Of a DNA stretch of 7,740 nt, positions 1 through 7,740 are shown in pieces. The stretch comes from a virus. Lineage: Duplodnaviria; Heunggongvirae; Uroviricota; Caudoviricetes. A program made the translations under genes and the position numbers. Every line of letters starts with the position of its first letter. The stretch's first letter is position 1. Where the stretch lies: positions 1-7,740 of the IMG/VR virus record IMGVR_UViG_2875722834_000001. The stretch is one strand, 5' to 3'. Under the pieces are notes generated by a model. That model was not told the origin of the DNA and ran no database searches. It saw only the letters and a list, made by a program, of their open reading frames with translations.

Positions 1-170
1 ACCTGCACTCCAATTATTGACCAGTTCCTCACCGCGCCTCCCTCTCCGGCGGCGCGAATGAACATCTTATTGGCTATCACATCCGACACAAATGTTGCCA
101 TCCCATTGCTTAATCGAATAAAAATCAGGCTACATGGGTGCTAAATCTTTAACGATAACGCCATTGAGGC

Positions 171-200
171 TGGTCATGGCGCTCATAAATCTGGTATACT
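171..200 (+). promoter_or_regulatory. Candidate sigma70 promoter for ssrA: -35-like TGGTCA (171-176), 18-bp spacer, -10-like TATACT (195-200)
   Basis: Hexamers read directly from the sequence. TATACT ends 14 nt upstream of the mature tmRNA 5' end at 215, consistent with a short 5' leader removed by RNase P. The -35 match is weak. No ORF of 60 aa or more lies in 1-214, so this stretch looks intergenic. Confidence 0.4.
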
Positions 201-214
201 TACCTTTACACATT

Positions 215-577
215 GGGGCTGATTCTGGATTCGACGGGATTTGCGAAACCCAAGGTGCATGCCGAGGGGCGGTTGGCCTCGTAAAAAGCCGCAAAAAATA
301 GTCGCAAACGACGAAAACTACGCTTTAGCAGCTTAATAACCTGCTTAGAGCCCTCTCTCCCTAGCCTCCGCTCTTAGGACGGGGATCAAGAGAGGTCAAA
401 CCCAAAAGAGATCGCGTGGAAGCCCTGCCTGGGGTTGAAGCGTTAAAACTTAATCAGGCTAGTTTGTTAGTGGCGTGTCCGTCCGCAGCTGGCAAGCGAA
501 TGTAAAGACTGACTAAGCATGTAGTACCGAGGATGTAGGAATTTCGGACGCGGGTTCAACTCCCGCCAGCTCCACCA
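215..577 (+). ncRNA. ssrA: tmRNA (SsrA, transfer-messenger RNA), mature 363-nt form
   Basis: Starts GGGGCTGATTCTGGATTCGACGGG and ends GGTTCAACTCCCGCCAGCTCCACCA (tRNA-like acceptor/T-arm with CCA). The internal tag reading frame at 304-336, GCA AAC GAC GAA AAC TAC GCT TTA GCA GCT TAA, encodes ANDENYALAA-stop, the E. coli/Shigella-type tag. The whole gene matches my recollection of E. coli ssrA. Confidence 0.95.
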
Positions 578-585
578 AATAAATC

Positions 586-620
586 AAGGGGTTACGTAAA
601 AGCGTAGCCCCTTTTTCTTT
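586..620 (+). terminator. Intrinsic terminator downstream of ssrA
   Basis: Left arm AAGGGGTTACG (586-596) pairs with right arm CGTAGCCCCTT (603-613), with one G-U pair, around loop TAAAAG, followed by the T-tract TTTTTCTTT to 620. Seen directly in the sequence. Confidence 0.6.
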
Positions 621-635
621 GGTAGTGGCGGCAAA

Positions 636-674
636 ATGGCGACAGACTTTTGCGTCCATCTTGCCTGTCGCCAT
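636..674. repeat. Perfect 10-bp inverted repeat ATGGCGACAG (636-645) / CTGTCGCCAT (665-674) with a 19-bp spacer; the octamer CCATCTTG is also repeated directly (656-663 and 671-678)
   Basis: Read directly from the sequence. It lies between the ssrA terminator and the RBS (AAGAGG 689-694) of the 701-1183 gene. Possible operator, recombinase or IHF arm site, or RNA hairpin. Confidence 0.5.
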
Positions 675-700
675 CTTGAAATCATGCAAAGAGGTTTCAC

Positions 701-1183
701 ATGGAAGAACTTCACTTTGTTTACATCAATGCAAATGGTCGTATCGGAGTTCACTCAATACAGAGCATCAGTTATAGCGAAAATCATATACAGGGCATTT
801 GTAAGAACACCGATCGAATAAAAACCTTCCGAAAAGACCGCATTCTTAAACAGTACGATTCACCAGAACAAGCCATTCAGGAATGCGCGTCATTCCTCCC
901 CGAAAACTACTCACACCTCACTAAGCAGTCTGGTCCGAAAAAAAATACATTCGATGTGTGTTTCACCGGATTTAAGAAAGCAGATAAAGAAAGATTGGTT
1001 GATAAGGCGAATGAACAAGGATTAACGGTAAGAACCTCTGTAACCCAAAGCCTTCAGATGCTCTGTTGCGGTTACAATGCAGGCCCATCAAAAGTATCGG
1101 CAGCCAGGATGAAAGGCACAATCATCATAGATGAGCCTGGCTTTATACATTTTCTTGAAACGGGTGAGATCCCAGATGAATAA
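701..1183 (+). CDS. Hypothetical 160-aa cargo protein: N-terminal WYL-like domain fused to a C-terminal BRCT-like domain
   Basis: Strong RBS AAGAGG 6 nt upstream of the ATG at 701. The N-terminal half contains RIKTFRKDRI, resembling the R-x-F-R-x-D-R-I hallmark at the end of WYL domains. The C-terminal half (NTFDVCFTGF ... GLTVRTSVTQSLQMLCCGYNAGPSKVSAARMKGTIIIDEPGFIHFL) resembles the BRCT fold pattern of NAD-dependent DNA ligase (LigA) C-termini. The region is visibly AT-rich compared with the adjacent phage core. Domain calls are by eye and need HMM confirmation. Confidence 0.7.
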   Translation: MEELHFVYINANGRIGVHSIQSISYSENHIQGICKNTDRIKTFRKDRILKQYDSPEQAIQECASFLPENYSHLTKQSGPKKNTFDVCFTGFKKADKERLVDKANEQGLTVRTSVTQSLQMLCCGYNAGPSKVSAARMKGTIIIDEPGFIHFLETGEIPDE

Positions 1184-1211
1184 AAACCTGCCGTAGCAGG
1201 TTCTCTTTCTC
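1176..1211. terminator. Bidirectional intrinsic terminator between the convergent 701-1183 gene and ogr
   Basis: Perfect 7-bp stem AACCTGC (1185-1191) / GCAGGTT (1196-1202) around loop CGTA. On the minus strand the stem is followed by TTTTTATT; on the plus strand by CTCTTTCTC. Confidence 0.55.
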
Positions 1212-1428
1212 AAAAATTCATATGCCCCTGACCACCTGGCAATGGATGTGGAGGAGCAGTAGCAATCAGTGCGGGTGTCACAATAAACCGGACCACTGTT
1301 TCATGGGTAACAAAAGTGCTCCCGCAGTTAATATTTTGGCACTGGCAGTAACGCTCTTTGGTGCTTTCAGTTACTTGAAAACTGCTCCTTGTGTGTGCCG
1401 CATGACCACACTTTGGACAATTCATCAT
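1210..1428 (-). CDS. ogr: Ogr-type zinc-finger late-gene transcriptional activator (P2 Ogr / 186 B / P4 Delta family)
   Basis: The ORF 1210-1473 contains MMNCPKCGHAAHTRSSFQVTESTKERYCQCQNINCGSTFVTHE..., with the C-x2-C ... C-x4-C spacing and overall resemblance to P2 Ogr (about 72 aa). The upstream 16 codons of the six-frame ORF are probably not translated, so the start is set at the internal Met at 1428; the start is uncertain by one codon (1425 or 1428). Confidence 0.85.
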   Translation of the reverse strand: MMNCPKCGHAAHTRSSFQVTESTKERYCQCQNINCGSTFVTHETVVRFIVTPALIATAPPHPLPGGQGHMNF

Positions 1429-1496
1429 ATCCAGATCCCTACCTTTGCTATCAGAATCATTGTAATGATACACAAAATATCAACATTGAGAACACT

Positions 1497-2597
1497 TTAT
1501 TCCATTTCAAGATCATCAATCTTCACTTCGAGTTCAATACTGGTCGTAAAACCATTATCCGGGCTGACGGTATGAGTCAGAGTCGTAATGGTCCATTCCG
1601 CATCATCTATCGGTTGTTTAAAGCCACTAACTTTCACTGGCATTTCCGTGTAAAGATCTGCCCGCCCTTCCGCCAGTTGTAGCGAGAATGACGCAACGCC
1701 GCGTTGCAGGCGTTCCCACTGCATTTTCGCTGCCCGTTCAGCGTTGCTCCGGTTGGCATAAGTGCGATTAAGTACCAGCACGTTTTCATCCGTACCCACC
1801 AGGTAATCGCCCTGCTTCGCTTCCGGCTCTTTCTTCTGCTTCTTAGTTCTGCGCTTACGCTTCACCGTGGTACTTTCTTTCTTCGCAGGTTCGCGGGTAT
1901 GCAACCAGCTGGCAATTACGCCCGTGTAGGCTCCGCGATCTGCCAGGGTAAATCGGTGACTGTCGCCGTCCTTGCGTGTGATAGTGATCACTGGCAGAGG
2001 TTTACCAGTGGCGCTTTTGCCCTGCCCCTGCCGGATGAATAACAGATTGCCATTTTTCACCGACGCGATGGCACCGTACTGTCGCGCCAGCCGCATCAGA
2101 AAACTGCCGTCACTCTCATTAGTCTGGTCTATATGCTCCACGGGCTTATCCGACAGGTCTTTACCCAGTGCCATCTTCAGCTTGTGCCGCGCGGCTATTT
2201 CCTTCACCACTTCCCCGACGGTGGTCTTATGCCACGATTTTTCACGGCGGGTATTCAGCGTTTCCCGAAAATCAGCACTTCGCGCCCGAATAGTCAGGCG
2301 GTCCGGTGCGCCAGTGTGTTCAATCTCGTCCACTGTGAATGCCCCTTTCGGGAAAAGCGGCTGCCCCTTCCAGCCCAGCGCCAGCGTAATAACCGCACCA
2401 CGGCGCGGCAGCACGATTTTTCCGTCAGCGTCATCCAGCTCCAGATCAAGCTGGTCCGCTTCAAAGCCCCGGTTATCCGTCAGCGTCAAACTCATCAGGC
2501 GGTTATCCAGCACAGTGGTGATATCCCTGCCCTCAATACTGATGCTGAATGCGGGAGTTTTGTTGCCTTTGTTAAGCAGTTCAGAGCTGAAATTCAC
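1497..2597 (-). CDS. D: P2 gpD-like tail protein (late control D family), 366 aa
   Basis: Size and position match the P2/186 order T-U-D-ogr. Its start overlaps the stop of the upstream U gene by 4 bp (ATGA-type coupling). GC-rich codon usage typical of the phage core. The identity rests on synteny, not on a recalled gpD sequence. Confidence 0.85.
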   Translation of the reverse strand: MNFSSELLNKGNKTPAFSISIEGRDITTVLDNRLMSLTLTDNRGFEADQLDLELDDADGKIVLPRRGAVITLALGWKGQPLFPKGAFTVDEIEHTGAPDRLTIRARSADFRETLNTRREKSWHKTTVGEVVKEIAARHKLKMALGKDLSDKPVEHIDQTNESDGSFLMRLARQYGAIASVKNGNLLFIRQGQGKSATGKPLPVITITRKDGDSHRFTLADRGAYTGVIASWLHTREPAKKESTTVKRKRRTKKQKKEPEAKQGDYLVGTDENVLVLNRTYANRSNAERAAKMQWERLQRGVASFSLQLAEGRADLYTEMPVKVSGFKQPIDDAEWTITTLTHTVSPDNGFTTSIELEVKIDDLEME

Positions 2598-3079
2598 GAC
2601 AGCAGCCCTCCCACCGTTTTACTGATATCGCTTAAGGCAGACGTTGCCGTGTCCTGCAGATTATTCAGTTGCGCACTGAGATCACCGAACATATCGGACA
2701 GGGATTCATCCACTCGTTTGAGCGACAGGGTGAACTCAATCCGGCGCGGCATACCGTCGCGGAAAAACTCCGTTTTAGTCTGATTCAGTCCCTCAATCAC
2801 ATACATGCCGTAAATCGTGCCGCTGCCTTCAATCAGGGGCCATGCTTTCCCCTGTTCTGCCATCTGCTCCAGTGCCAGCAACGACAGCCTGCCGCCTGTT
2901 ATTTCCGGCATAAGAACACCGGAAAGCGTCAGCATGTCGTTTTCCGGTCCCAGAAACTGCGTGGACGGACGTCGGTTTACCCGACTGTTTGCCGCATGTC
3001 GCCAGCTGCGTTGATACTGCAGTTCCTGATACGGAACGGTGCGCAGCATAAACACGTACAATCCCAGCACCATCATCAT
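2594..3079 (-). CDS. U: P2 gpU-like tail protein, 161 aa
   Basis: About 160 aa, located between the tape-measure gene and D, with 4-bp overlaps at both ends. The start is one of three consecutive Met codons (MMM). Confidence 0.85.
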   Translation of the reverse strand: MMMVLGLYVFMLRTVPYQELQYQRSWRHAANSRVNRRPSTQFLGPENDMLTLSGVLMPEITGGRLSLLALEQMAEQGKAWPLIEGSGTIYGMYVIEGLNQTKTEFFRDGMPRRIEFTLSLKRVDESLSDMFGDLSAQLNNLQDTATSALSDISKTVGGLLS

Positions 3080-4476
3080 GCGTCGTATCCCCCCTGATCG
3101 CTGTAGTTACTCCTGGCTTTTGCCTTCAGCCTGCGTTCACGTTCATCAAGCTGGCGTGCCACCTCCCGCGCAATATCCTGCGCACTTTGTCCTGGCTGCG
3201 TCTGAATGATGATCTGCGTCGGTGCCTCAATCCGTTGAACGAGCGGCACAGTGGCTGCGCGACTCACAATTGCTTCTCCACCTTTCGCGGGAAGTGCCAA
3301 GGGGTGCAACGGTGGAAGCTCTGCTGGCGCGGCAGCAACGCCCATCATTCCGGCAACAACGGCAGCCAGTGCAGCTGTATTTCTCCGGCTGGTCACATTT
3401 GCCGGGCCGTTAACAATTTCCGGCCCGTTTTCACCGACGATGCCAAACTGCCCGCGCGGGATATACCCGCCGCTGTCATACATCCCCGCAAAGCCATATC
3501 CCCATGATGGAAAACCACCCGATGGCATCATCACTTTACCGTCTGCATTCACCGTCGCAGGTTGCTGACGCGTCACGCTTTCCGGCAGTTTTGCCTTTGC
3601 GGCCTCTTTACTGACAATGCCGAGCTTCTCCAGCAACCAGGAAACGCCGGATTTCAGGGAGTCCAGCGGATGCATGACCATATTCAGCCCTTCCGCCAGT
3701 GCCTCCCCGAATCGCCGCCCCATTGCCGCTGCGCTCTGCAGTTCGGCAGAGGTCGACTTAACGGGCGTCAGCAGATCAGTAAACCAGCCCCACAGCGCCT
3801 GCACTTTGTCGCCAATCCACTGGAACACGGGCTTAAGCGGTTCGAACGCTGCACTGATGGGACCTGCCGCCGCTTTGAATCCTTCCACCACGCCACCGAG
3901 AAATGCGGTGATGGGTTGCCAGTATTTCCAGACAACCAGCGCCACGCCCGCCAGTGCAGTAACCACAAGACCTATCGGACTGAGCAGAGCACCTAACAGA
4001 CCAGATATGGCATACAGGGCAACGCGCAGCATCGCCAGTGGACCAGATGCCAGTACTCGCAGCACCGTGCCTGCGGCGGCCAGTCCACCGCGCAGTACCG
4101 CCAGAGGATTCATAAACATCACAGCAACAGCACGTAAACCGGATACCGCACCTGCAGCAACACGCCCGATCTCTGCGGTTGCACTCATGACGTAATGTGG
4201 CAGTTTCTCTTTTGCCACCTCATTAATCGGTACACATGGCAGGCAGTGAATCTGAGCCAGAAAACCATCTACCAGCGTTGAATCTTCAGTCAGATCGGTA
4301 AGCAACCAGATTTCTGGTGCAGTTAATAAATGAGGTTGAGCTGGGTTCAGCTTGTTCCGCAGAATCTGCACATTCATGCCTGCACGTTCTGCCAGTTGCA
4401 CCAGGTTGTGGCGCAGTGCAAAAGCCCTACAGGCTTCATCGAAATGCGGATGTTTGGAAATCTTGTAATCAAACAT
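3076..4476 (-). CDS. In-frame chimeric ORF (466 aa): CII-like regulator N-terminus (about 100-120 aa) fused to the C-terminal part of a tail tape-measure protein (gpT-like); probable deletion remnant
   Basis: The N-terminus [45 protein letters not shown]...[25 protein letters not shown] matches what I recall of phage 186 CII. The rest is Ala/Gly/Val-rich with hydrophobic segments typical of tape-measure proteins and sits directly upstream of U and D. Good SD (AAGGGGGG) before the ATG at 4476. A full gpT in P2 is about 800 aa. Confidence 0.75.
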
Positions 4477-4509
4477 GGTGCCCCCCTTAGAAAGTTCCCA
4501 TAATTGAAC

Positions 4510-4752
4510 TTACTTACCAACAATGACTCGGAAGTTGGAATGACCGAGGGATTCACGGACCTGATCGGTTTTGTACATCAGATAACGCAGGCTTACGCGA
4601 CCTTTGTTTTTTTCTTTCTTGACCATGTACTTAGCAAGTTGACCATGGTGAATTTTTTGGTAAACAGAGCCGCGGGAAATACCCTCCCACTCTGCGAACT
4701 CTGCAGGCGTAGCCATCTCTTTTGGTACACGAATTGAAATATCAGTACTCAT
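4510..4752 (-). CDS. Small HTH DNA-binding protein in the Apl/Cox position (putative excisionase and switch regulator), 80 aa
   Basis: It is the first gene of the operon leading into the CII-like gene, divergent from the cI-int operon, as for 186 apl or P2 cox. The segment TPAEFAEWEGISRGSVYQKI looks like an excisionase-type helix-turn-helix. Assignment is mainly by synteny. Confidence 0.65.
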   Translation of the reverse strand: MSTDISIRVPKEMATPAEFAEWEGISRGSVYQKIHHGQLAKYMVKKEKNKGRVSLRYLMYKTDQVRESLGHSNFRVIVGK

Positions 4753-4873
4753 AGTGCAGTATCTCTTACTTTGTGTGCGTGTTAGTTCGTTTTAGCCCGT
4801 CTCTTAAACTCTCACATCAAGAGACATGAAGACATTACGATCTTGATTCAAGATTGTCAAATGGAGATTACCA
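4753..4873. promoter_or_regulatory. Lysis-lysogeny switch region between the apl-like gene and cI, with candidate promoters and operators
   Basis: On the minus strand there is a consensus -35 TTGACA (plus coordinates 4855-4860), a 17-bp spacer holding the perfect 15-bp palindrome ATCTTGATTCAAGAT (4840-4854), and a -10-like TAATGT (4832-4837). A 7-bp inverted repeat GTCTCTT (4799-4805) / AAGAGAC (4819-4825) and several TCTCTTA-like repeats (4761-4810) are also present. The cI RBS is GGAG at 4863-4866. The plus-strand cI promoter may lie within the start of the apl-like gene (TTGAAA at 4734-4739), as in the face-to-face promoters of 186 and P2. Confidence 0.55.
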
Positions 4874-5506
4874 ATGTTAAACATCAGAATGGGTTCCGAT
4901 ACGGGAGGTAAGGCAGCTATTGAAAGGCTGCTTGAGGCTTATGGATTCACAACTAAGCAGGCATTAAGCGAGCACCTGAATGTCTCAAAAAGCACTATGG
5001 CAAACAGAGTGTTACGTGACAGCTTTCCTGCTGACTGGATAATTCAGTGCGCACTAGAAACCGGTGTTTCGTTGCTTTGGTTAGCTACAGGACAGGGAAG
5101 CATGAAAGGAGGAGCTGAGCCTGAGAAAAGTTCTCATAATGAGAACAAACAAGCAATTAAACCGTTATCCAAACTCATAACTCCAGCTATTCCTAAAGGA
5201 ACCCTGGAGAATGGACAACTCAGTATTGATGAAGAGATTTTCCTAGACCACAGCATATTACCTGCAGATTATGAAGAATCGATGTTCTTAGAAACCCCTA
5301 CTGATTGTTATCTCATCGATAAATCAATTAAACAGGTCAGCAATGGATTCTGGCTTATCAATATTGATGGAATGATTATTGTTGCAAAAATCATGCGGAT
5401 TCCCGGCAATAAGATTGTAGTAAATCAAGATGAAGCGTCTTTCGAGTGCTCTACTGATGATGTGGAAGTTATTGGGCGTGCAGTCAAAGTAATAAAGAGT
5501 ATCTAA
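4874..5506 (+). CDS. cI: Phage 186 CI-like immunity repressor, 210 aa
   Basis: The motifs LEAYGF, CALETGVSLLWLATGQG, GFWLINIDG, RIPG, FEC and IGRAVKV align with what I recall of 186 CI (CEAYGF, CALETGANLQWLLTGEG, GLWLVDIEG, KLPG, FEC, LGRVVGV). It lies immediately upstream of int on the same strand, as in 186. Confidence 0.85.
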   Translation: MLNIRMGSDTGGKAAIERLLEAYGFTTKQALSEHLNVSKSTMANRVLRDSFPADWIIQCALETGVSLLWLATGQGSMKGGAEPEKSSHNENKQAIKPLSKLITPAIPKGTLENGQLSIDEEIFLDHSILPADYEESMFLETPTDCYLIDKSIKQVSNGFWLINIDGMIIVAKIMRIPGNKIVVNQDEASFECSTDDVEVIGRAVKVIKSI

Positions 5507-5508
5507 AC

Positions 5509-6525
5509 ATGACTGTCAGAAAACAGCCAAACGGTAAATGGTTGTGCGAGTGCTATCCCAATGGACGCAATGGCAAGCGCGTGCGTAAGCAATTTGCTAC
5601 GAAAGGCGAAGCCATTGCTTTTGAAAGCTTCACAATGGAAGAAGTGAACAAAAAACCATGGCTGGGGGAAAAGGAAGATCGGCGACACCTATCAGAATTA
5701 ATTGAGCAGTGGTATTCCCTGTATGGTCAAACACTCGCAGACCCCAAGCGCCTCATGGCGAAACTTAGAATTATCTGTAATGGTCTAGGCGATCCCATCG
5801 CCTCAGAACTAACAGCCGGTGACTTTACGAAATACCGCGAAGCACGGTTAAAAGGTGAAGTACGAAATGAAGATGGCACGCTTATGTCGCCCGTTAAGCC
5901 CCGCACGGTAAACCTTGAACAGCGCAATCTATCATCGGTGTTCGGTACATTAAAAAAACTAGGACACTGGTCAGCACCAAACCCGCTGGCAGGACTTCCG
6001 ACCTTCAAAATTACCGAAGGTGAGCTGGCTTTTCTTTCCGTGGACGAAATCAAGCGCCTGTTGGCTGCATGTGCTGAATCTCAAAGCCCGAGCCTACTAA
6101 TGATTGCAAAAATATGCTTAGCTACCGGCGCACGGTGGAGTGAAGCCGAAAACCTTCAGGGCCACCAAATATCGAAATACCGAATTACTTATACAAAGAC
6201 AAAGGGCAAGAAAAACAGAACAGTACCAATATCTCAAGATCTGTATCACGAACTCCCCAAAAACAGAGGGAAGTTATTCACGCCATGCAGAAAATCTTTT
6301 GAGCGTGCAGTAAAAAGAGCAGGTATTGACTTGCCAGAGGGCCAGTGCACGCATGTATTGCGCCATACATTCGCTAGTCACTTTATGATGAATGGCGGAA
6401 ATATTCTTGTATTGAGAGATATTTTAGGGCACTCAGATATAAAAATGACAATGGTCTATGCCCATTTCGCACCAGAACATCTTGAAGATGCTGTTACTAA
6501 AAACCCCTTATTTAACTTAAAGTGA
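5509..6525 (+). CDS. int: Tyrosine site-specific integrase, P2/186 family, 338 aa
   Basis: The C-terminal catalytic region HVLRHTFASHFMMNGGNILVLRDILGHSDIKMTMVYAHF carries the R-H-x-x-R ... Y signature of tyrosine recombinases; an upstream conserved Arg lies in LATGARWSEA. It starts 2 nt after the cI stop, suggesting translational coupling. Confidence 0.95.
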   Translation: MTVRKQPNGKWLCECYPNGRNGKRVRKQFATKGEAIAFESFTMEEVNKKPWLGEKEDRRHLSELIEQWYSLYGQTLADPKRLMAKLRIICNGLGDPIASELTAGDFTKYREARLKGEVRNEDGTLMSPVKPRTVNLEQRNLSSVFGTLKKLGHWSAPNPLAGLPTFKITEGELAFLSVDEIKRLLAACAESQSPSLLMIAKICLATGARWSEAENLQGHQISKYRITYTKTKGKKNRTVPISQDLYHELPKNRGKLFTPCRKSFERAVKRAGIDLPEGQCTHVLRHTFASHFMMNGGNILVLRDILGHSDIKMTMVYAHFAPEHLEDAVTKNPLFNLK

Positions 6526-6534
6526 TAAATAAAA

Positions 6535-7740
6535 ATGCATATTCAACAAGAACTCGATGAAGAACTTAATAATCTTTTTGACACTATTAGAAAAAAATCA
6601 AGTATTCGACCACCAATTGAGATTGAAAAAAACCTTACTTTGATAGATGACTTCGCTCTAAAATGCAGTAAATTCCGGGGTTGTTTAGTAGATTACATCC
6701 AGGAAAATGATAACAGGTTAAGTTTACGCTTGCGCAATAGACTTAGAGCTGTAGATATCATGCAGAAAGAAATCGTCTCGTGTTTAGAGTGTTTTTTATC
6801 AGGGGATATTAAGTCGGCATATGACTCATTTGAAAGTATGCTAGAGCCACGAACTATATCTCGTCATATTGAAAATATATGCATACCTCTTTCTGACTTA
6901 TGTAATGAAGATAAACCATTATTCCGCGTTAGAAAATCTGATACGCCACTTACATCAAGAAGAGATATGTTTCATATTCCGTTCAGTCAGCGTCACTTTG
7001 TTAGAGCACAGAGATTTTCAGTTGCTGGTCTACCCTGTTTATATTTAGGAACATCTCTTTATATATGCTGGAGAGAAATGGATAAGCCAGATTTTGATAA
7101 GCTATATATATCTGCCTACAAGATCGATAAAAATAATGACTCAAAGGTACTAAATATAGGACCTGATTTTTTATATAAACAGAGATCTATATTAGAGTCA
7201 AAAAGAAAGAACAAATATGATTTCAATACCAAACTCTCATATTTAGCACTTTGGCCTTTGATAATTGCATGCAATTATTTAAAAAAATATGACAATGCTT
7301 CCTTTGTACAAGAATATATTATCCCCAATCTTTTGATGCAATGGATCAGTCGGAACAGCAATGAGAATGTTGTTGGTATAGCCTACCGCTCAACAAAATT
7401 ACCTGCTAATGCCTTAGGTAGCAGAGGAATAAATGTGGTACTTCCTCCAAAAGTGCGTTACGAGGAGATGGCCAATAATGAATTTTGTCCAAATCTAGCG
7501 AAAATTTTCAAATTCACATTGCCTGTATCTTGGCAGGTCCTAAAAACAGTTGAGTACGTGCCTGAATCAGTTGCACAATCCGATCGAGAGAATCTCAGCA
7601 GAAGGCTACGAAGAAGAAAAAATCGTGAGCTAACAGGAAGCATAGATGATGAAATTTTGAACATCTATAATTTAACTGACTTTTATAAACTCGAAACTTG
7701 TATGGATGAAATTCAAGTATATGCCCATATTAAACCATGA
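6535..7740 (+). CDS. Hypothetical 401-aa cargo protein with a central RES-domain signature (putative NAD+-targeting toxin or defence effector)
   Basis: RFSVAGLPCLYLGTSLYICWRE gives Arg160-x9-Tyr170-x10-Glu181, and GIAYRSTKLPANALGSRGINVVL gives Ser286, matching the conserved Arg/Glu/Ser and their spacing in RES-domain toxins. There are long N- and C-terminal extensions, including the basic stretch RRLRRRKNR. The region is very AT-rich. The ATG is 9 nt after the int stop with no recognisable SD. The stop codon is at the last three bases of the window. Confidence 0.75.
   Translation: MHIQQELDEELNNLFDTIRKKSSIRPPIEIEKNLTLIDDFALKCSKFRGCLVDYIQENDNRLSLRLRNRLRAVDIMQKEIVSCLECFLSGDIKSAYDSFESMLEPRTISRHIENICIPLSDLCNEDKPLFRVRKSDTPLTSRRDMFHIPFSQRHFVRAQRFSVAGLPCLYLGTSLYICWREMDKPDFDKLYISAYKIDKNNDSKVLNIGPDFLYKQRSILESKRKNKYDFNTKLSYLALWPLIIACNYLKKYDNASFVQEYIIPNLLMQWISRNSNENVVGIAYRSTKLPANALGSRGINVVLPPKVRYEEMANNEFCPNLAKIFKFTLPVSWQVLKTVEYVPESVAQSDRENLSRRLRRRKNRELTGSIDDEILNIYNLTDFYKLETCMDEIQVYAHIKP

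Follow-up and report, generated by a model that had tools for sequence, protein, structure and literature searches.

An open reading frame (ORF) in a P2/186-like prophage remnant of Escherichia coli fuses the start of the regulator gene cII, with the reading frame kept, to the final third of T, the tail tape-measure gene. It encodes 466 amino acids from an ATG start and lies at 3076-4476 on the minus strand of the window, by which is meant the whole stretch of DNA analysed here (7,740 nucleotides, positions 1 to 7,740 of IMG/VR virus record IMGVR_UViG_2875722834_000001). The explanation that best fits the evidence, held with high confidence, is that the ORF is the scar of a single deletion, most likely non-functional and silenced by the CI repressor. 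Taken alone, such an ORF is a textbook case of prophage disarming and of low interest; it is ordinary prophage decay and a further instance of a common event. The notable part is the breakpoint in cII, which recurs in many other deletions.

The fusion ORF and its two parents

The N-terminal part is a CII sequence. Residues 1-113 are 100% identical to residues 1-113 of the CII of Escherichia phage Cartapus (BLASTP), and the Pfam CII family PF06892 (Phage_CP76) matches residues 10-111 with E=6.2e-37, covering positions 1-111 of a 146-position model, a domain cut short. The intact CII homologue of the LF82 prophage matches the 186 CII structure PDB 6VLI over residues 1-145 (E=6.5e-65). The remainder of the fusion is tape measure. 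Over residues 111-466 the protein shares 99.7% identity with the 1025-residue T protein of the MSB1_4I prophage (its residues 670-1025) and 98.0% with Cartapus T, and residues 586-736 of P2 gpT align with fusion residues 156-308 at 44% identity (BLASTP). The contribution of T is its final 35%. An earlier note on this DNA, made from the sequence alone, had read the first 100-120 residues or so as a 186-type CII regulator and the rest as the C-terminal third of a tape-measure protein; both readings hold. Colinearity of the whole protein with a single known family, or an N-terminus unlike CII, would have spoken for something else, and neither was found: the alignments give two parents.

The 186 CII protein is an activator of the promoter pE, and RseP and FtsH degrade it (PMC8538670). 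The fusion resembles 186 CII (PDB 6VLI/6VPE/6VMH) in its residues 1-113, which carry the N-terminal domain, and in the position of its gene, second in the pR operon directly after an apl/cox-like gene and divergent from cI and int, in the window as in Cartapus and LF82. Unlike a full-length 186-type CII of about 169 residues, it lacks residues 114-169, the C-terminal third, and has 353 tape-measure residues instead. Judged by its sequence, the N-terminal part is a fragment of a CII and not a CII. The last 356 residues of T are colinear with fusion residues 111-466 down to the native stop, after which U and D follow with their native overlaps. Compared with a full-length T of the P2 family (about 815-1025 residues), residues 1-669 are deleted, including the PF10145 region of longer T proteins. 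The late promoter is gone. Also missing upstream are the late tail operon and the frameshift chaperone genes E/E', which Cartapus, MSB1_4I and P2 have.

The translation signals reported in the earlier note are in place. A Shine-Dalgarno sequence, AAGGGGGG, stands at 4488-4481, and 4-bp overlaps connect the fusion ORF with U (3076-3079) and U with D (2594-2597). Hydropathy analysis gives a strongly hydrophobic stretch in the T part, at fusion residues 147-186 or thereabouts. An AlphaFold model of intact CII reaches good confidence at residues 10-76 only, with a predicted local distance difference test score of about 50 beyond residue 76; in that low-confidence region the break would fall at the end of a modelled helix (92-112), ahead of a predicted kink at 113-117, and the helix break is therefore weak evidence.

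Annotation pipelines disagree on the ORF. RefSeq, through its Prokaryotic Genome Annotation Pipeline, gives it as two adjoining pseudogenes, a tape measure 'missing N-terminus' and a CII 'missing C-terminus'. In other records the same protein is a 'phage regulatory CII family protein'. Several related T C-terminal fusion proteins (P0123, P0134, P0217-P0236) are labelled 'tolA' in their source annotations, a misleading automatic name.

Junction and size of the deletion

DNA alignment with both parents places the junction within the interval of about 4100-4200 that had been proposed. Homology on the ssrA side stops at 4145 and homology on the cII side stops at 4142, with the tetranucleotide TATC common to both. 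At this point cII reads GGTGCGG-TATC-TGGCGATG, T reads CTGGAT-TATC-CGGTTTACG, and the window reads GGTGCGG-TATC-CGGTTTACG. Both parental flanks are found and are otherwise unrelated, as in a deletion at a microhomology. Some intact cII alleles carry TATCCGG; had the parental cII been one of them, the two sequences could originally have shared 7 bp.

The material missing from the window, compared with the intact ssrA prophage of LF82, is a single contiguous block of 26,041 bp, and Cartapus coordinates give 26,041 bp as well (27178-33368 plus 1-19850). The block takes in the 3' end of cII with fil, dam, gpA and the cos site, the genes for portal, terminase, capsid and lysis, those for baseplate, fibre, invertase, sheath, tube and E/E', and T codons 1-669. 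Cartapus and the intact ssrA prophages of LF82 and MSB1_4I share attachment site, gene order and sequence with the window, which is short by this one block, and both flanks of the junction are colinear with intact prophages. The proposal that one in-frame deletion took the virion-building core is borne out by this comparison. The frame of the fusion is in itself unremarkable, since co-oriented genes join in frame one time in three.

The proposed course of events is a deletion by illegitimate recombination, in one event, in a 186/P2-like prophage (Elveevirus, Cartapus type) at ssrA. A DNA end in cII, with a coding strand ending in GGTGCGGTA-3', would have been joined via TATC to T codon 670. 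The join happened to fall in frame, linking the first 111 codons of cII to the last third of T and making cox - cII'::'T - U - D one operon behind a pR-like promoter. The product retains the N-terminal DNA-binding part of CII without its C-terminal third, followed by the hydrophobic C-terminal third of T.

Expression and function

The cox/apl-like gene heads the lytic operon, and the fusion ORF is the second gene behind a putative pR-like promoter (TTGACA-17 nt-TAATGT). The spacer of this promoter contains the palindrome ATCTTGAATCAAGAT, a probable CI operator. A consensus promoter scanner chose a weaker neighbouring site over TTGACA-17-TAATGT. The fusion ORF, U and D appear to have been left with no late promoter and would now be readable only from the pR-like one. 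Because the cI gene (4874-5506) is intact, the operon is probably repressed, which departs from the earlier expectation that the chimera is still expressed from the lytic promoter. The suggestion that it could have acquired a function has gained nothing either: the sequence analyses of this study gave no pointer to a function of the protein, and RefSeq calls its two parts pseudogenes. The fusion product is most likely a non-functional by-product that the intact CI would keep silent.

Recurrence of the cII breakpoint

At least sixteen distinct deletion junctions end cII after GGTGCGGTA, at nt 333 of the gene. Both ssrA and rcdA-ybjL are represented among their attachment sites, and the immunity modules differ. 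The hot spot spans positions 4139-4147, corresponding to cII nt 330-338, and the recurrent break lies between 4144 and 4143; the loci concerned are L002, L006, L007, L009, L019, L020, L021, L025, L036, L074, L076, L077 and L079. In every cII::T fusion the cII break is inside codons 111-113, and the DNA end common to all partners is GCAGGTGCGGTA. The partners themselves are diverse. T is joined at six positions (T613, T670, T718, T721, T727 and T885), the portal gene at two and the terminase gene at three. Further partners are gpA (in an E. coli B derivative), gpD, a fragment of the IS66 family of insertion sequences (IS) and two unassigned sequences. The cII-to-D junction of L036 is out of frame and several other hot-spot junctions run into genes of the opposite strand; the recurrence is therefore independent of the making of a fusion protein.

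Some hot-spot junctions came from queries anchored on the hot spot, and the unanchored subset was counted apart. In that subset, four of seven junction types fall at nt 333-338; the remaining three are near nt 161, 207 and 395. The probability of four in seven within one 6-nt window of a 510-nt gene is roughly 7e-7, by hand calculation and uncorrected for having chosen that window; counted more loosely, as seven of ten, P = 3.6e-12. The dinucleotide TA stands directly left of the join in 9 of the 11 partners that have a reference sequence (as GGTA in two of them), for which P is about 2e-11 at the TA frequency of the phage, and it agrees with the bases at which the cII end terminates. A coding-strand 3' end at nt 333 that annealed downstream by its last two to four bases, and was joined or extended there, would give such a pattern.

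At the break site cII alleles differ, some having the GGTATCTGG and others the GGTTTCTGG form. Diverged alleles are alike up to nt ~338 and unlike beyond it (L093, L101, L118, L123, L133 and L170 against L004 27179-27184), and the hot spot thus coincides with a mosaic boundary in cII. A description of the cII hot spot was not found in the searchable literature. Pattern scans of genome and metagenome contigs returned mostly an unrelated conserved gene, with only three loci derived from cII, and a protein search with intact CII gave only full-length proteins among the matches listed.

Other defective P2-like prophages, including the rcdA-ybjL remnant of T7Express, have the same cII end joined through a short microhomology to another phage gene; they differ from the window in the partner site and mostly also in attachment site and immunity module. 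In T7Express, an E. coli B derivative (L020 3501-4946), cII nt 333 is joined in frame to gpA ahead of the EPHHDG (HUH) motif. The same cII-gpA junction recurs in metagenome and IMG/VR contigs (L024, L075), and E. coli B/BL21 is among the strains with the nt-333 cII end. In the ssrA remnant of CUPF12 (L002 4580-5331), cII nt 333 is joined in frame to T codon ~885, giving GAV/YGFAGMYD (here and below a slash marks the join); this chimeric ORF is unannotated, RefSeq marking only a cII fragment. A related locus is found in PK5, with IS1 under the match. A food metagenome contig (L025 1-9982) has three internal deletions, two of them at the same hot spots: one runs from cII to portal, one from the scaffold region to where T begins, and one from T718 to T codon ~993. 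In the rcdA-ybjL prophages at L019 3358-5034 and L006 1127-2803, a nuclease-like cargo gene (DUF4041/SNIPE-T5orf172) lies between int and cI.

Other tape-measure fusions

A search with the fusion protein detected in-frame cII::T fusions of 521, 466, 420, 416 and 409 amino acids, and at least six in-frame junction versions of cII::T exist. The same T C-terminus is found on other phage fragments in dozens of proteins, where the donors are sheath, baseplate V/W/J, gpL, lysozyme and capsid scaffold, and additionally terminase, Dam, resolvase, gpA and upstream T. Among 120 cluster representatives there are about 62 junction types. The chimera had been described as unusual; the T C-terminus is commonly fused in E. 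coli to a dozen other phage genes, beside the several cII::T versions, and that description does not apply.

T breakpoints are clustered as well, at codons of about 602, 632, 670 and 716-720 (proteins P0136-P0240). T670 (TTA/TCCGG) and T718 (ATA/TCTGG) act as preferred acceptors for many donors, and T718 is also a left end in one multi-deletion remnant. Some donor breakpoints recur with several T sites, namely NQGLD/ in lysozyme, INGGV/ in V and ALLS/ in the sheath protein. The 466, 420 and 416 amino acid junction types each occur with two diverged cII N-terminal alleles, from which it follows that exchange of the left module happens.

What might make the cII end

Several sources of a DNA end were compared with the hot spots and set aside. 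A pseudo-origin for gpA is one: the nick context of the P2 origin (GCCGCGCCTC/GGAGTCCTGTCAATAAC) and its Cartapus counterpart are unlike GGTGCGGTA/TCTGGCG, and the P2 nick sequence GCGCCTC/GGAGTCC is unrelated to the cII hot spot. Chi and RecBCD are another, as neither Cartapus strand has an exact Chi and sites with one mismatch lie away from the hot spots. Slippage at hairpins was rejected on the folding of single-stranded DNA, in which cII, T670 and T718 are no stabler than shuffled sequences (z -0.56 to +1.30). For a Gin-type invertase, the phage's own crossover site (ACC-TT-GGTTTGGGAGAA) is unrelated to the hot spots. TATCYGG is not sufficient as a motif, with 21 copies in Cartapus and none of the mapped non-T breakpoints (gpA, Dam, J and others) on one; the copy near T codon 338 is about 6 nt from the recurrent breakpoint at T codon 343. 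The T670 site, TTATCCGGTTTAC, resembles the 3' arm of a repetitive extragenic palindrome (REP). By our own rough estimate about 0.7 matches of 11/13 would be expected by chance in a 33-kb genome, and the resemblance is a weak lead.

Selection for an N-terminal fragment of CII cannot explain the single-base precision of the end, because the downstream sequences are unrelated and include opposite-strand and out-of-frame partners. Illegitimate recombination with one fixed end occurs in nick-site deletions at the M13 and pC194 origins and in gyrase- or REP-associated joins. The cII junctions are like these systems in that a single end is precise, the partners are numerous and the microhomology amounts to 0-7 bp. 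A tentative proposal, possible and short of probable, is that a sequence-specific process makes a 3' end at GGTA/TCTGG in cII, with acceptors at TA/TCYGG in T; candidates are a topoisomerase or gyrase site, the target of an unrecognised nickase and a strong replication stop. The first of these would fit a network of discrete sites recombining pairwise. We know of no nickase site in cII.

Alternative explanations

Some observations weigh against a single deletion within one prophage. The precision of the cII end is without explanation among the mechanisms compared above. In addition, the two halves of the window differ in closest relative. The T-U-D-ogr side is of MSB1_4I type (99.8% for window 1-4145) and only 96% identical to Cartapus and LF82 (96.1% to LF82 for window 26-4145); the cII-cox-cI-int side is that of Cartapus (NC_070909, Elveevirus; 100% for window 4142-7740), with LF82 at 99.97% for window 4139-7740. 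Among Cartapus, LF82 and MSB1_4I no single intact relative exceeds 99% on both halves, so that the parent was a mosaic absent from collections or one side was replaced later. The unequal halves, the carriers with other islands in tandem at ssrA and the left-module exchange indicated by the two cII alleles of three junction types would all suit a junction formed between two P2-like prophages, either in tandem at ssrA or as a remnant and an incoming phage. Such an origin is unlikely: P2-like phages are mosaic as a rule, which makes a single mosaic parent simpler, and no tandem intermediate was found. The join would be one of microhomology either way, with the nature of the ORF unchanged. A shared cII end might also reflect one ancient truncation followed by nested deletions, or stringent selection, and not a mutational hot spot. 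A second deletion at the junction TA would indeed recreate the cII end, for example in passing from the 521 to the 466 amino acid form. However, the gpA (3.4 kb away), terminase and portal partners keep DNA that is absent from the cII::T forms, which leaves no single series; the junctions lie at both ssrA and rcdA-ybjL with different immunity modules; and the end of a nested deletion must still land exactly on the old junction, which is a hot spot again. Selection for truncation leaves the single-base precision unexplained, given such different downstream sequences. This account of the shared end is accordingly judged improbable.

An artefact of assembly or gene calling can be dismissed almost entirely. 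The junction is present in one of 5,426 complete E. coli genomes, and because the identical 466 amino acid protein is found on at least 16 independently assembled contigs of other assemblies, with identical sequence, an assembly error is excluded. The same contigs could be taken to favour a functional chimera under selection, for example a CII DNA-binding domain tethered to the membrane by the T segment and disturbing the CII of superinfecting 186-like phages, as could the intact ORF with its Shine-Dalgarno sequence and coupled stops. Their conservation is uninformative, since the remnant is 99.8-100% identical in the eight carrier loci compared and there has been too little time to decay. Four same-strand hot-spot junctions were detected independently of protein searches, and three of them are in frame (CUPF12, LR-27 and BL21 against L036), which is not significant against an expectation of one third. 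The break meets the mosaic boundary in cII and, more weakly, the predicted helix break at 113-117, in a part of the structure model that is of low confidence past residue 76. The Pfam CII domain is cut at 111 of 146, the promoter is under an intact repressor, and the same cII end occurs on opposite-strand genes, an IS fragment and an out-of-frame D. A selected function is thus very unlikely, and the scar of a single deletion is retained as the explanation of the ORF.

The prophage remnant and its carriers

The window is 100% identical to a region of the HH107 E. coli chromosome (NZ_CP116405.1) downstream of smpB-ssrA. Its genes (Table 1) are the same set in the same order as in Cartapus, and by gene content the window is a two-ended stump of a P2/186-like prophage (Peduoviridae, Elveevirus type) at ssrA. 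An integrase gene and a direct attachment (att) repeat from the ssrA 3' end identify it as an ssrA prophage. The second 46-bp att copy lies 120 bp past the end of the window, giving a remnant of ~7.3 kb between the repeats, and the 46-bp repeat is likewise present in CUPF12. The replication, packaging, head, lysis and tail modules of a complete prophage are not all there, and the element is a defective remnant.

Table 1. Features of the window (coordinates in the 7,740-nucleotide stretch)
Feature	Position	Strand	Basis
ssrA (tmRNA)	215..577	+	ARAGORN, tag ANDENYALAA; RefSeq annotation; 3' end = phage attachment site
att core repeat, 46 bp	533..578	.	Exact copies at L001 3533 and 10860
Cargo ORF, 160 aa, att-adjacent	701..1183	+	Pfam BRCT E=0.0011, sub-cut-off
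ogr-like late-gene activator, intact	1210..1428	-	Pfam Ogr_Delta E=1.5e-20; RefSeq CDS 219 nt
gpD tail protein gene, intact	1497..2597	-	Pfam Phage_GPD E=2.5e-27
gpU tail protein gene, intact	2594..3079	-	Pfam Phage_P2_GpU E=2.8e-44
T-derived part of fusion ORF (T codons about 672-1025 + stop)	3076..4141	-	DNA identity 99.8% MSB1_4I, 96.3% Cartapus
Deletion junction, TATC microhomology of cII (GGTATCTGG) and T (TTATCCGG)	4142..4145	-	Three-way alignment
cII-derived part of fusion ORF (cII nt 1-331)	4146..4476	-	DNA identity and Pfam PF06892
Shine-Dalgarno sequence of fusion ORF, AAGGGGGG	4481..4488	-	Read from sequence; 4 nt before ATG
cox/apl-like excisionase-repressor gene	4510..4752	-	Cox-like in Cartapus, Rha family in RefSeq; no Pfam match
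Putative pR-like promoter TTGACA-17 nt-TAATGT, upstream of cox	4832..4860	-	Read from sequence; function inferred
CI repressor gene, intact	4874..5506	+	Pfam Phage_CI_repr and Phage_CI_C, E about 1e-30 each
Integrase gene, intact	5509..6525	+	Pfam Int_N and Phage_integrase
Cargo ORF, 401 aa, far prophage end	6535..7740	+	No Pfam match; Cartapus: 'putative RES protein'

The two ends of the stump carry cargo ORFs. The 160 amino acid ORF, between ssrA and ogr, is present in the Cartapus, LF82 and MSB1_4I prophages and conserved in all examined remnants; it is named BRCT domain-containing in RefSeq for some genomes and putative exonuclease in Cartapus. The 401 amino acid ORF beside int is low in GC (29-36%), is labelled putative RES/NAD+-binding in Cartapus and resembles defence-type cargo. 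In four carriers (L011, L012, L014 and L015) another integrase island, with a CbtA/CbeA toxin-antitoxin or of another type, lies between ssrA and the remnant, which implies tandem use of the ssrA attachment site.

Implications

If P2/186-like prophages in E. coli do break repeatedly at a single base of cII and at a few positions in T, their decay would be partly deterministic. It could then be reproduced in the laboratory, giving access to whichever enzyme or DNA feature produces the ends. The int-cI-cox-cII' stump that so many E. coli strains share, the laboratory B strain among them, would be explained as well. Should a sequence-specific process make the cII end, it would be a main route by which 186-like prophages are inactivated in E. 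coli, and the fusion in the window would be one product of a reproducible pathway.

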